A stretch of 64,000 nt of DNA. It comes from an uncultured bacterium. GTDB lineage: Bacteria; Bacillota_I; Bacilli_A; RF39; UBA660. The DNA lies in NCBI GenBank assembly GCA_945935525.1, contig CAMERI010000004.1, forward strand, positions 9,645 through 73,644, written 5' to 3'. Numbering within the stretch: position 1 is the first letter of the stretch; each line of letters begins with the position of its first letter. This document shows positions 985-40,441 of the stretch, piece after piece. The notes below the pieces were generated by a model. That model saw only the letters and a program-made list of their open reading frames with translations. It was not told the DNA's origin and ran no database searches. The position numbers and the translations under genes are program-made.

Positions 985-1092
985 AATATCCTCTCCTTCT
1001 TGACTTAGATTATAGCATATTAACATCTATTTGAGAATAACATATTTATTTTTATAGTAAAAAATATTATAATAGATATACTAGGAGATTAT

Positions 1093-1632
1093 ATGAATGT
1101 ATTATATGCTCAATTAATTGGTGCAGCAGCAATGCTTACTATGACTCTTTCTGTACAATGTAGAAAGAAAAAACACATGATGATAGTTCAATCAATTGCT
1201 CACATGTTCTATTCATTTCAGTATGCACTACTGGGAGGTTTTTCAGCCGCATTCATGGATATAATTTCAGTACTAAGAATTCTATTATTTTATAAATATG
1301 ATAAATCTAAAATGAAAATACCACTTATATTACCAACAATAGTTATATTAGTAACTGTATTTGTAGGTATTCTAACATATACTAATCCACTATCACTTTT
1401 ACCAGTATTTGCTGCAATCATCTATACAATAGGTGCATCATTTAAAGATCCAAAAGTATATAAATTTGTATTTGGTACATGTGCTATCGGATGGTTATTC
1501 TATAACCTAAAGTTTCAAGCTTACGTATGCGTAATTGGTAACATAATGGAAATAACATCAACTACTATAGCTCTTATAAGAGAAACAAAAAGAAAAAATA
1601 GAAAGAGAAAAAATATTAAAAAACATAAATAA
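1093..1632 (+). CDS. YgjV-family inner membrane protein
   Basis: 179 aa, about 6 hydrophobic segments, Q-x-K-x-K after TM1, W-x-x-YN near C-terminus, basic tail. Confidence 0.7.
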   Translation: MNVLYAQLIGAAAMLTMTLSVQCRKKKHMMIVQSIAHMFYSFQYALLGGFSAAFMDIISVLRILLFYKYDKSKMKIPLILPTIVILVTVFVGILTYTNPLSLLPVFAAIIYTIGASFKDPKVYKFVFGTCAIGWLFYNLKFQAYVCVIGNIMEITSTTIALIRETKRKNRKRKNIKKHK

Positions 1633-1667
1633 TTTAAAGACATACTTCATATAATATAGTGTGTCCT

Positions 1668-1696
1668 TTGACATTTCTACCTAAATATGGTATAAT
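1668..1696 (+). promoter_or_regulatory. Consensus sigma-A promoter for the OLE-like RNA/oapA
   Basis: TTGACA(1668-1673)-17 bp-TATAAT(1691-1696) with extended TG. Confidence 0.9.
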
Positions 1697-1703
1697 TTTA
1701 GAT

Positions 1704-2157
1704 GTATGGAGCATTATACTAGTCAAACATACCACTAGAAGATGGGGCTAAAAATCCATCAATTGTGTAAAATGATACTTTATATATTGCGCTTCTTACG
1801 CCCAGTTTGGGGCGGATATATAATTTTAGTTTTAAGGATATGATGTAATGGCATATATCTGAATTCCTTAATTCACATCGTAAAATATGAAAGCACATGT
1901 CGTGAGTGACTTATTGGGATAGTAATTGAAAAATAAGTTGCAAAAGCGAATAAAAGTGATACGTGTTTGCTTGGGAAAACCTCTAGTATGTCTATATTAT
2001 AAGGATTGAAGTGCGGACTAAGTGGTGATCGAGTGATCATTAATGGTAACAAGTGATTAATTCTTTTAAAGAGAAATCGCCTGCAGGTAACTAATGGTAA
2101 GAATTAGAGAAATTCAACTCGACCAAAGCCGTAAAATTAATTTATAATATTCCATAC
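1704..2157 (+). ncRNA. ole: OLE-like RNA, shortened (about 454 nt)
   Basis: GC-richer non-coding stretch; ends pair (GTATGGAGCATTATA / TATAATATTCCATAC); internal hairpins GATGG..CCATC and CGCCC..GGGCG; GGATTGAAGTGCGGACTAAGTGG recalled as OLE-like; lies immediately upstream of an oapA homologue. Confidence 0.8.
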
Positions 2158-2183
2158 TATTATATTAAGGGAGTTTATTAGAA

Positions 2184-2705
2184 ATGAAAAAAGATAATTG
2201 GATTCTAAAAGCATTTTTAATGACTTTTTTTATAGCTTTAATTTTTAGTAGTGCATCTAACTATCTAATATCAAAATTCAATAATACAATACTTTTAATT
2301 GTGTTATGTGTAATATTTATTGGTATAGGTATTCTATTTGATATTATAGGTACAGCTGTACTAACAGCAAACGAAGCATCATTTCATGCAAAAAGTGCTA
2401 AAAAAATAAAAGGTTCAAAAGAAGGAGTATATCTAGTTAAAAACTCAAGTACCATTGCAAGCATATGTAATGATGTTATCGGAGATATATGTGGTATAGT
2501 AAGTGGTTCTATAGGAGCAATGCTTGCCATAAATATATCTACTAAATTAAATGTATCAACAGTTATTGTTACACTACTAATAAGTTCAATTATTTCATCA
2601 CTCACAGTAGGTGGTAAAGCTATAGGAAAGAAACAAGCAATTAAAAATAGCGATGCAATTATATTCGTAGCCGCAAAAGTATTAAGTAAATTCAAAATTA
2701 AATAG
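2184..2705 (+). CDS. oapA: OLE-associated membrane protein A (DUF21/CNNM-like TM domain)
   Basis: GILFDIIG..A..A.E..FHA, CNDVIGDICGIVSG (DxxxD, GxxxG) and LTVGGKAIGK motifs typical of OapA. Confidence 0.85.
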   Translation: MKKDNWILKAFLMTFFIALIFSSASNYLISKFNNTILLIVLCVIFIGIGILFDIIGTAVLTANEASFHAKSAKKIKGSKEGVYLVKNSSTIASICNDVIGDICGIVSGSIGAMLAINISTKLNVSTVIVTLLISSIISSLTVGGKAIGKKQAIKNSDAIIFVAAKVLSKFKIK

Positions 2706-2716
2706 TTTCCAATACA

Positions 2717-2748
2717 AAAAGACTTAAGAAAAAATTCTTAAGTCTTTT
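2717..2748. terminator. Bidirectional intrinsic terminator between oapA and typA
   Basis: Perfect IR AAAAGACTTAAGAA / TTCTTAAGTCTTTT between convergent genes. Confidence 0.85.
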
Positions 2749-2751
2749 ATT

Positions 2752-4554
2752 TTATCTATTATTTCTAAATCTTTCTTTTTCATCAAGTATTTTCTTACGT
2801 AATCTAATTGCATCAGGAGTTACTTCTACTAACTCATCTTTTTCTATAAATTCTAATGCTTCTTCTAATGTAAATGTTCTAGGTCTTGGAAGTATTATTG
2901 CTTCATCACTACCAGATGAACGAGTATTAGAAAATTCTTTATTTTTACATGGATTAACATTTAAATCATTTTCTCTATTGTTAATACCAACTATCATACC
3001 AGAATATACTTCAGTAGATGGTTCTATTATCATAGTACCTCTATCTAATAAGTTATAAAGTGCGTATCCAAATGCTTTACCACTTTCCATAGATACAAGT
3101 ACACCATTCTTGCGTCCAGATATTTCTCCAGCATATGGTCTATAATCTTCAAAACTGCGTACCATAATACCTTCACCCTTAGTATTAGTAATAAAGTTAC
3201 TTCTATATCCTATTAAACCTCTTGTAGGAACAATAAACTCAAGTCTTACATAATTATCTTCAGCAGGTTCCATTATTTCCATAGTACCTTTTCTTTCACT
3301 TAAATCACTAATTACATTACCAGAATAATCATTAGGTACAGTAATTACTACTCTTTCATATGGTTCACATTTAACACCATCTATTTCTTGGAAGATAACT
3401 TCTGGTTTAGATACACCAAGTTCATAACCTTCTCTTCTCATATTTTCTATTAATATTGATAAGTGTAATTCTCCACGACCAGATACTTTAAATCCATCAC
3501 TACTTGGTAATTCTTCTACTTCAAGTCCAACATTACGTTCAAGCTCAGCCATTAATCTATCTCTTAAATGTCTAGATGTAACAAACTTACCAACTTTACC
3601 AGCAAATGGACTATTATTAACCATAAAATTCATTGATAATGTTGGTTTTTCTATTTCAATCTTAGGTAGAGGATCTACATGATTAACATCACAAATAGTG
3701 TCTCCAATAGATATTTCAGGACAACCAGCTACTATAACTATATCACCATAATATGCTTCACTTACTTCTTTTCTCTTAATTCCTTCATTAACGAATATTT
3801 TAGTAATTCTTTCTTTAGTAAGTTCTCCATTATTTTTAGATATTGCTACTGTTTCACCAACTTTAATTTTACCTTTATTAATTCTACCTATACCAAGTCT
3901 ACCAATATAATCATCATAATCAAGTGATGATATTTGTAATTGTAAAGGATCATTTTCATTTCCTTCAAATGGTTTAGTAGTTTCTATAATAGTATCAAGA
4001 AGTGGTGTAATATCTTTACTATCATCATTTTCTTCATACTTAGCTATTCCTTCTTTAGCTATACCATATATGATTTTAAAATCTAATTGTTCATTAGTAG
4101 CACCTAACTCACAAAATAAATCAAAAGTCATATTAACTACTTCTTCAGCACGAGCATCTTTCTTATCTATTTTATTAATAAATAGTATTGGTCTAAGACC
4201 ATATTTTAATGCTTCTTTTAATACAAATCTTGTTTGAGGCATTGGTCCTTCAGCTGAATCTACTAATAATACTACAGTATCTACTGTTTTAATAATTCTT
4301 TCTATTTCACTAGAAAAATCAGCATGTCCTGGAGTATCAACTATATTCATCTTAATACCTTTATATTTAATAGAACAGTTTTTAGCAGTAATTGTAATAC
4401 CACGTTCACGTTCTAAGTCTCCACTATCCATTACACAGTCAACTACTTGCTCATTTTCTCTAAATACTCCATTTTGTTTTAATAAAGCATCTACTAAAGT
4501 ACTTTTACCAGCATCAACATGAGCAACAACTGCAAAGTTAATAATTTTCTCCAT
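2752..4554 (-). CDS. typA: Translational GTPase TypA/BipA
   Basis: AHVDAGKST, ERERGITI, DTPGHADF, NKID, GRGELHL, VEVTPDAIRLRK; likely start MEKIINF at 4554. Confidence 0.97.
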   Translation of the reverse strand: MEKIINFAVVAHVDAGKSTLVDALLKQNGVFRENEQVVDCVMDSGDLERERGITITAKNCSIKYKGIKMNIVDTPGHADFSSEIERIIKTVDTVVLLVDSAEGPMPQTRFVLKEALKYGLRPILFINKIDKKDARAEEVVNMTFDLFCELGATNEQLDFKIIYGIAKEGIAKYEENDDSKDITPLLDTIIETTKPFEGNENDPLQLQISSLDYDDYIGRLGIGRINKGKIKVGETVAISKNNGELTKERITKIFVNEGIKRKEVSEAYYGDIVIVAGCPEISIGDTICDVNHVDPLPKIEIEKPTLSMNFMVNNSPFAGKVGKFVTSRHLRDRLMAELERNVGLEVEELPSSDGFKVSGRGELHLSILIENMRREGYELGVSKPEVIFQEIDGVKCEPYERVVITVPNDYSGNVISDLSERKGTMEIMEPAEDNYVRLEFIVPTRGLIGYRSNFITNTKGEGIMVRSFEDYRPYAGEISGRKNGVLVSMESGKAFGYALYNLLDRGTMIIEPSTEVYSGMIVGINNRENDLNVNPCKNKEFSNTRSSGSDEAIILPRPRTFTLEEALEFIEKDELVEVTPDAIRLRKKILDEKERFRNNR

Positions 4555-4716
4555 AATCTCATCCCCTCTTAGATACGCACTTAATAATACACTATTTTCA
4601 AGCATTTTTCAAGAAAAATCGTATTTTTTTATAAATTATCACTATAAGTGTATTTTTATCATTCTTAGTAAATGGTTAAAATTTCCAAATAATGGGAAAA
4701 TATTACTAGGAGTTTA

Positions 4717-7702: not shown

Positions 7703-8134
7703 CGAGTTTCCGAAAATAAATTATGAATCATTTATATTAATAATTAAATTAATATAAATACTTCTAAATATTATCAGTATTTAGCATAATTTCTTATCAT
7801 TTTGAGTTTTGCTTTCTCAACGTTATAACATTTGTCCTTAGTAGATAAGACATCTATTTCTTAAATTAATAAGATATTTTTATTATTTATATTATTTTGA
7901 TATAAAATATTATTAGTAAGATAGATATATAATTAAGTTAGTAAATTAATACTAATTAAGAACATATAATTGAAAAATAATATTAGTATATCCAATATAA
8001 ATAAGTAAAAATAATATAGATTTTTTCACTAATATAATTAAATTATTTATATTATTATATAAGTTTATAAAAGTAATTAAACTTAAATAAATTATTATAT
8101 AATAGATATAATATTTAATTATCTATTGGACAAC
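7663..8134 (-). ncRNA. Putative novel structured AU-rich ncRNA (about 470 nt)
   Basis: Promoter TTGACA(8166-8161)-17-TAATAT, terminator hairpin plus U-tract at about 7702-7663, no ORF of 60 aa or more, many inverted repeats. Confidence 0.55.
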
Positions 8135-40306: not shown

Positions 40307-40352
40307 TAATAAAGTACTTGATTTTATTTTAAAAATAATATATAATCTACTT

Positions 40353-40423
40353 GTGCAACAGAAAAAATGCAAATCAGGTCAGAATCGGAAGATAGCAGCC
40401 TTAAGTGATTATTCTGTGTGCAC
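40353..40423 (+). ncRNA. ffs: SRP RNA, minimal form (about 71 nt)
   Basis: TCAGGTC..GGAAG..AGCAGC core, closing stem GTGCA/TGCAC, T7 tail, promoter TTGATT(40318)-17-TATAAT(40341); next to tadA-dnaX. Confidence 0.88.
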
Positions 40424-40441
40424 TTTTTTTGTGAGGTAAAA

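Follow-up and report, generated by a model that had tools for sequence, protein, structure and literature searches.

A shortened OLE RNA and its oapA gene in a reduced-genome bacterium of the RF39 lineage

Results

Identification of the OLE RNA and oapA unit

The DNA analysed here, a stretch of 64,000 nucleotides (nt) from contig CAMERI010000004.1 of an uncultured, probably gut-dwelling bacterium (hereafter, the window), carries at positions 1668 to 2748 what is very probably (probability about 0.92) a single transcription unit, composed of a shortened OLE RNA with a core of about 452 nt (1705–2156) and the gene of the membrane protein OapA, and falling into "variant 2", a class published for gut Bacilli with reduced genomes (RF39 type). 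Few bacterial RNAs whose biochemical function is unknown are as large as OLE, which recent cryo-electron microscopy (cryo-EM) work proposes to be a membrane-spanning dimer.

A scan of the whole window with the Rfam covariance model of OLE (RF01071) gave a match on the plus strand at 1690–2171, with a score of 209.5 bits (gathering threshold 50) and an E-value of 1.7e-57, in which model positions 1–616 were covered by 482 nt; oapA lies directly adjacent. This bears out the OLE RNA-oapA module that an earlier reading of the letters alone (the sequence-only reading) had proposed, and also its estimate that roughly a quarter of the RNA was gone, since the RNA is 134 positions, or about 22%, shorter than the 616-position model. 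Stems were named by comparing the Rfam consensus with published descriptions (PMC12265935, PMC12286853), while the helix names of domain 2 are our own assignment from PMC7936274. The features of the unit, all on the plus strand, are listed below.

1668–1696, plus: promoter of the sigma-70/sigma-A type (TTGACA, 17 nt, TATAAT, extended -10 TG)
1690–2171, plus: OLE RNA short form (RF01071), structured core 1705–2156
1705–1710 with 2151–2156, plus: closing helix P1, compensatory change in 2 of 6 pairs
1715–1722 with 1983–1990, plus: P2, from the consensus fold
1724–1728 with 1965–1969, plus: P3, compensatory change in 4 of 5 pairs
1733–1736 with 1955–1958, plus: P3.1, compensatory change in 4 of 4 pairs
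1741–1760, plus: P4 hairpin, invariant A-rich loop CUAAAAAU
1764–1768 with 1893–1897, plus: P4a, enclosing P5 and P6, compensatory change in 3 of 5 pairs
1780–1823, plus: P5/P5.1, invariant loop GCCCA (P5.1)
1829–1874, plus: P6/P6.1, loop AAUGGCAU (P6.1), AAGG/CCUU duplex in P6 with UCCU invariant
1875–1892, plus: variable linker of 18 nt without conserved pairing, replacing J6/7, P7 and P8 (model 191–277)
1900–1949, plus: proximal part of P9, conserved GGAU/UGAAA internal loop capped directly, distal P9 and palindromic tip loop absent
1973–1981, plus: P10 mini-hairpin, GGGAAAACC
1994–2150, plus: domain 2 (P11–P15 region), complete, with P13 (2035–2058) and P14.1 (2079–2098) each bearing a GUAA (GNRA) loop
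2184–2705, plus: oapA, membrane protein of 173 amino acids, DVIGD at residues 97–101, ribosome-binding site AAGGGAG upstream
2717–2748, plus: intrinsic-terminator-like hairpin of 14 pairs with a T run, closing the ole-oapA unit and facing the end of typA

Compared with full-length OLE (RF01071), the window RNA thus retains P1–P6, proximal P9, P10 and domain 2, the same L4, L5 and L6 loops, both GNRA loops and oapA directly downstream, whereas P7, P8, J6/7 and distal P9 are missing. Several of the retained parts have roles ascribed to them elsewhere: P3/P3.1 has been proposed as a membrane-crossing stem and the P4a region holds a mapped OapA site (PMC12265935), the A-rich L4 loop is the dimer contact B1 in cryo-EM structures (PMC12286853, PMC12265935), and the corresponding P6 site of H. 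halodurans is a bS21 site with an anti-Shine-Dalgarno mimic (PMC12054373).

The promoter, which the sequence-only reading had called perfect, matched the consensus at 12 of 12 positions, with the TG extension, and was the sole 12/12 promoter within 1000–3000. In the genus it was conserved at 10 or more of 12 positions with TG in all 18 loci with full hits (12/12 in 8 of them), and it sits 7–10 nt 5' of helix P1 in these 18 loci. Because the first approximately 13 nt of the Rfam match overlap the -10 box, the 5' end of the RNA lies probably near 1703, as judged from the promoter position. At the other end, oapA starts 28 nt past P1, and the ribosome-binding site lies 15–30 nt downstream of P1 across the 18 genus loci. 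In a scan of 1000–3000, no terminator was found in the gap between the OLE RNA and oapA, and 2717–2748 was the only terminator-like site.

In some congeners (loci L003, L008, L012, and L014), the 3' strand of P1 is directly followed by 8–9 U before the ribosome-binding site of oapA, a run that could make P1 a terminator-like stem; the window has no such run.

The earlier description of a 454-nt GC-enriched non-coding stretch closed by a terminal helix was accurate in its length and closure, as the span from P1 to P1' is 452 nt; the enrichment itself is weak, with a GC content of 0.30–0.32 against 0.26–0.29 alongside, which equals the coding level of argS and typA.

Fernando and Breaker (mSphere 2024, PMC11332333) described variant 2 OLE as "commonly found in RF39 organisms" and stated that it "entirely" lacks P7 and P8; the reduced genomes were noted there, and a pressure to shrink the RNA was proposed. 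The window RNA likewise lacks P7 and P8 while keeping the other conserved nucleotides, and it shares with variant 2 an uncultured, probably gut-dwelling host, a genome of about 1–1.5 Mb, the retention of oapA and the absence of any detected gene of the OapC family. Variant 2 scores 235–310 bits with the authors' own model, a scale with which Rfam scores are not comparable. The window RNA is therefore a member of an already published short OLE class and is not new.

Conservation and covariation of the short form

OLE matches were found in 19 of 24 congeners, 17 of them complete (479–483 nt) and two cut or partial. For covariation, the 18 genus sequences were aligned with 7 other short forms, giving 25 sequences that are 67–95% identical to the window RNA. 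RNAalifold returned 123 pairs, 58 of them with compensatory change, and the consensus fold recovered P1, P2, P3, and P3.1, none of which is held in the Rfam model. Paired cells reached 98.5%, against 36–42% when the partners were slid by 1–3 columns, and both-side changes affected 58 pairs against 12–21 in the slid controls; none of 500 shuffles attained the observed covariation values. The structure was predicted from the same alignment as was tested, which somewhat favours these covariation figures.

RNA-library contigs from two studies matched the RNA at 1717–2091 with 1 mismatch and at 1759–1962 with none, and they give a weak hint of expression. An apparent joint from 1817 to 2003 in RNA-library contigs stems from full-length OLEs of other organisms matching conserved blocks and was not used, and window parts without contig cover were likewise not used as evidence. 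The ole-oapA unit is genuine and under selection, and it is probably expressed.

Modules lost from the window RNA

The missing helices were mapped by the cmscan alignment together with a full-length relative, and this showed that the deleted parts are P7, P8, the linker J6/7, and P9 in its distal half, so that the RNA is not a full-length OLE. In the P7 and P8 regions, model positions 198–277 are reduced to 16 nt in total (198–241 to 9 nt and 242–277 to 7 nt), which correspond to local-end gaps of 44 to 9 and 36 to 7; aligned to the full-length relative, the P7 columns retain 3 nt and the P8 columns 6 nt. The J6/7 consensus GUGGAG is deleted, J4a/5 is altered, and 50 model positions inside the long P9 hairpin are represented by 4 nt. 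The small hairpin at model positions 424–435 is also absent from the window, but because it is equally absent from the full-length relative G119 (596 nt, 386.7 bits), its loss does not set the short form apart.

These deletions bear on the contacts seen in the cryo-EM structures. With the J6/7 strand deleted, the J4a/5–J6/7 kink-turn cannot form as in those structures, and with P7, P8, J6/7, and distal P9 absent, neither bridge B3 nor the L7 part of bridge B2 can form as described. Of the 34 long forms, 32 had a G/C-containing palindrome in the tip loop of the long P9 (GGCC, UGGCCA, UAGCUA, UGUACA or GUGCAC), which fits the kissing loop of the cryo-EM work. Such a palindrome was found at the P9 tip in none of the 18 genus sequences and in none of the 6 forms that have P7/P8 but a short P9. 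Having neither P9-tip palindrome nor P7, the genus as a whole is without bridge B3 and without the contribution of L7 to B2; its L4 and L5/L6 loops are kept. P7 and P8 are described as not being dimer contacts (Lyon and Breaker, 2025; PMC12265935), and this non-contact role may explain why they are dispensable.

Relative to the published classes, the genus of the window has neither the distal P9 nor the palindromic loop on it, whereas the text of PMC11332333 names a shorter P9 for variant 1 only; the figures of that paper may already show it for variant 2. Variant 1 (TANB77 clade, PMC11332333) resembles the window RNA in being shortened, with a shortened P9, in reduced-genome gut bacteria. It differs in keeping short P7 and P8 and in a P13 tip that often has no OapB site, whereas the window RNA has no P7 or P8 and its P13 GNRA loop is present.

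OapA and other protein partners

The gene product, identified by the sequence-only reading as OapA from motifs that include DVIGD, was confirmed as a 173-residue protein with DVIGD at residues 97–101. The pattern D[VI][VI]GD was kept in all 80 relatives fetched, and both aspartates were invariant in the alignment. Across 30 aligned relatives the motifs GIxFDxIG, KxxG, CNDxxGD, and TxGxKA were invariant, and a basic, presumably cytoplasmic cluster, HAKSxKKIKG, was conserved with K74 and G77 invariant. An OapA match followed OLE in 20 of 20 genus loci, although in four it was partial (121, 67, 120, and 120 residues), and OapA was found in none of the five OLE-less congeners. The nearest OapA loci belong to gut metagenome-assembled genomes (MAGs) titled Bacilli, Mollicutes, Tenericutes, Clostridium sp. 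CAG:628, and Ca. Coprovivens. More distant relatives (46–54% identity) were tested at seven loci, and all seven lay directly behind an OLE of 209–474 bits (309–474 bits in five, 209–233 bits in two), one of them a 588-nt OLE in a Syntrophomonadaceae MAG. By sequence comparison, the window OapA is homologous to the OapA found behind canonical full-length OLE, a relation that runs through these relatives rather than through the H. halodurans protein.

The AlphaFold2 model of OapA (pLDDT 86.5, pTM 0.78) contains long helices at residues 6–31, 35–61, 88–122, and 126–154, in keeping with a small and mostly helical membrane protein. Its top five Foldseek matches in the PDB were CorB/CorC CNNM membrane domains (7m1t, 7m1u, 7cff), with probabilities of 0.99–1.00, TM values of 0.50–0.60 and E-values of 0.005–0.46. 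The best match of an OapA profile against the PDB was also CorB, with an E-value of 0.43 that is not significant alone. OapA thus shares a predicted fold with the membrane domain of the CNNM/CorB/CorC/MpfA Mg2+ transporters, in agreement with the published OapA–CNNM relation (PMC11332333); it differs from them in lacking CBS and CorC domains and in carrying DxxxD, and the sequence similarity is marginal.

At the G119 locus (0.8 Mb genome, full-length OLE; L169:293–1917), a gene for a 330-residue multi-pass membrane protein stands between OLE and oapA, and the OapA of this genome (199 residues) has a sub-threshold Pfam CNNM match of 19.7 bits.

As for the other partners, the L7Ae/YbxF family to which OapC belongs (PF01248) was found in none of the four genomes searched, with a positive B. 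subtilis control and a window genome that is 93% complete. The KOW model (PF00467) gave two matches per genome in four of four, of sizes fitting L24 and NusG; as it also gave just two in an OLE-bearing Clostridia MAG, the model probably misses OapB, and no conclusion on OapB was drawn from these matches. PF09953 (DUF2187), a possible family of OapB (YbzG), was present in none of five genomes, again with a positive B. subtilis control, and nothing was drawn from it. In H. halodurans, OapB binding needs a single-nucleotide bulge by the P13 GNRA loop (PMC7936274); the window RNA keeps the loop, and the bulge is a 3-nt/1-nt internal loop. RF39 and TANB77 bacteria are described as largely lacking OapB and OapC (PMC11332333). 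The gene of bS21 was present in five of five genomes.

A published proposal has MpfA taking the place of OLE; this was not seen in the two OLE-less congeners tested (G010 and G002). CNNM/MpfA was found neither in these nor in G000 and G243; since the MAGs are incomplete, this neither supports nor refutes a replacement.

Deletion series in the family

OLE was found in 96 of 151 sampled genomes of the order, and 55 had no match. Among the 96, 64 RNAs were at least 570 nt long, 11 measured 520–569 nt, 19 measured 480–516 nt, and two measured 378–381 nt. The sequence-only reading had placed a miniaturised OLE in a genome-reduced lineage. Within the family, the length of the RNA is not tied to the size of the genome: all hosts of the 64 RNAs of at least 570 nt have assemblies of at most 1.6 Mb, the mean assembly size was 1.24 Mb for hosts of short forms and 1.16 Mb for hosts of long forms, and OLE length was uncorrelated with assembly size (Spearman rho 0.06, p 0.55, n = 96), in a test whose sizes are rounded, whose genomes are MAGs, and whose relatives are not independent. 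The contrast is illustrated by the 0.8-Mb, 98%-complete relative that retains a 596-nt OLE. Genome streamlining as the driver of shortening within the family was rejected on the rho of 0.06.

Presence and absence of modules were then scored on an alignment of 78 OLEs, comprising the window, 17 congeners, and 60 of the other 95 survey matches (the 35 left out were all 573–615 nt), to which two more sequences were added to give 80 rows for the tree.

P7/P8 present, distal P9 present: 30 rows
P7/P8 present, distal P9 lost: 6 rows
P7/P8 lost, distal P9 present: 6 rows
P7/P8 lost, distal P9 lost: 34 rows
P5–P8 all lost: 4 rows

On a quick maximum-likelihood tree of the RNA gene, unrooted and built from the 462 remaining columns, the forms without P7/P8 formed a clade of 42 rows with an SH-aLRT support of 100. 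The minimum number of state changes was at least two for P7/P8, at least five for distal P9, and one for P5/P6. The genus of the window falls inside the P7/P8-less clade and has the shortest P9 among the forms that retain P5/P6.

A still smaller form of about 378–397 nt, here called micro-OLE, was found by BLAST within the family in 4 of 401 sampled genomes, from three genera.

L139:1001–1378: micro-OLE of G243
L140:1001–1381: micro-OLE of G264
L298:1497–1881, minus: micro-OLE of G482
L305:1484–1880, minus: micro-OLE of G342

In the micro-OLEs, model positions 74–277 are reduced to 12–14 nt, P4a has turned into a capped hairpin, and P5–P8 are gone, while each has a promoter-like site and an intact oapA (172–174 residues, DVVGD) directly downstream. 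The four share their remaining architecture, with compensatory change in 13 of 101 pairs. In the alignment of the four, from which the P9 tip was taken, the short P9 carries at its end the invariant loop CUGAUCA, which contains the palindrome UGAUCA. The existence of these forms in the same family, with intact oapA, overturns the suggestion that the window RNA could define the minimal functional core of OLE. No description of micro-OLE was found in the literature searched, in which PMC11332333 was the sole paper found on OLE variants, its figures and supplements lying outside the coverage.

The A-rich L4 loop was present in every form. Each sampled form has, in addition, the L5/L6 pair or else a P9 palindrome containing G and C, a retention which may mean that L4 and one other bridge, whichever it is, are what the dimer requires. 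A tentative proposal, with the odds somewhat against it, is that the OLE deletion series goes beyond the three published classes: the loss of P7/P8 would be essentially a single event, distal P9 and the palindromic kissing loop on it would have disappeared three or more times (the genus of the window among them), and P5–P8 would have been lost in one sub-lineage; the dimer would require L4 and one additional bridge of any kind; and P1–P4a, proximal P9, and domain 2, together with OapA, would make up the irreducible core.

Genomic context

The host genome (1.5 Mb, 29 contigs, 93% complete) holds a single copy of OLE. The unit is flanked in the window by the following genes.

1–1026, minus: argS
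1093–1632: YgjV-family membrane-protein gene (PF10688)
2752–4605, minus: typA/bipA

The order argS-(ygjV)-OLE-oapA-typA is specific to the genus, with TypA at 17 of 20 loci, ArgS at 17 of 20, and YgjV at 11 of 20, while YgjV or TypA stood beside OLE in none of 60 loci of other genera. The flanks argS, ygjV, and typA thus differ from the usual OLE neighbours named by the sequence-only reading, which had rightly pointed to a different context.

Elsewhere in the window, the segment 4717–5580 beside typA holds three paralogous open reading frames of 82–87 codons on alternating strands, with helix-turn-helix-like products and a GC content of about 0.20–0.26. A PGK RNA motif (RF03040) lies on the minus strand at 7764–7856 (83.4 bits, full length), and a small bacterial SRP RNA (RF00169) lies on the plus strand at 40349–40429 (49 bits, with neither the 5' nor the 3' end of the model covered).

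Discussion

By analogy with the OLE ribonucleoproteins that have been studied, the window RNA would form two domains connected through the P3 stem, OapA would bind the RNA and hold it at the membrane, and the particle would help the cell to cope with Mg2+, cold, alcohol, and poor-carbon-source stress. The window copy would do this with fewer parts, as P7, P8, the J6/7 strand, and the distal P9 kissing loop are missing and no OapC gene was found; the parts retained are the A-rich L4, the complementary L5 and L6 loops, the P6 site assigned to bS21, P2–P4a with the mapped OapA sites, and domain 2.

Some observations count against this interpretation. The window OapA has no match to any Pfam or NCBIfam family, and the function, the membrane location, and the binding of OapA are all carried over by analogy, with H. 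halodurans and the Clostridium structures as sources. As DNA may be present in RNA libraries, the contigs from such libraries prove neither transcription nor ends nor abundance. In addition, five of the 24 congeners (G002, G005, G009, G010, and G017) lack both OLE and OapA, two of them in genomes that are 94% and 90% complete; the module is therefore dispensable in the genus. Together with the 55 of 151 genomes of the order without an OLE match, this shows that the retention of OLE, which the sequence-only reading had taken as a sign of importance in a streamlined genome, is not universal.

One alternative is that the main action of the structured stretch is in cis: it would be a long 5' leader controlling the translation or stability of oapA, and not a separate RNA particle. 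No terminator separates P1 from the ribosome-binding site of oapA, and an RNA-library contig with 32 differences, from a related strain, extends from 1971 to 2638, within oapA, as a leader would predict, although co-transcription followed by processing is compatible with an OLE particle. The two RNA-library contigs that match best stay within the RNA, which is a weak hint, and in G119 the 330-residue gene separates a full-length OLE from oapA, so that adjacency is not required. The RNA is homologous along its entire length to OLE, which is described as a stable component of a membrane-bound ribonucleoprotein (PMC12265935, PMC12286853), and we consider a mere leader very improbable. Slightly less probable still is a decaying, non-functional OLE remnant whose deletions are steps towards loss in a shrinking genome, as might be read from the three modules missing from the window RNA, the loss of OLE and oapA in the five congeners, and the 55 genomes of the order without a match, because sequences that are 67–95% identical preserve one architecture, in which the loops are invariant and 58 pairs show compensatory change, all 18 loci retain the promoter, oapA follows OLE in all 20 genus loci (partially in four) with its motif in 80 of 80 relatives, and the short forms make up a well-supported clade (42 rows, SH-aLRT 100) that is old rather than recent.

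The preferred interpretation thus remains a shortened OLE RNA of the variant 2 class, transcribed with oapA. As a stand-alone finding it carries little weight, being one more member of a published class, and the loss of the P9 kissing loop in the genus and the micro-OLE series are modest additions. What these RNAs offer is that natural OLEs without defined dimer contacts or protein sites, yet selected together with oapA, show which parts are dispensable: the genus of the window does without L7, the P9 kissing loop, and the kink-turn strand, and micro-OLE does without L5/L6. Both short forms provide smaller constructs for structural and reconstitution work.

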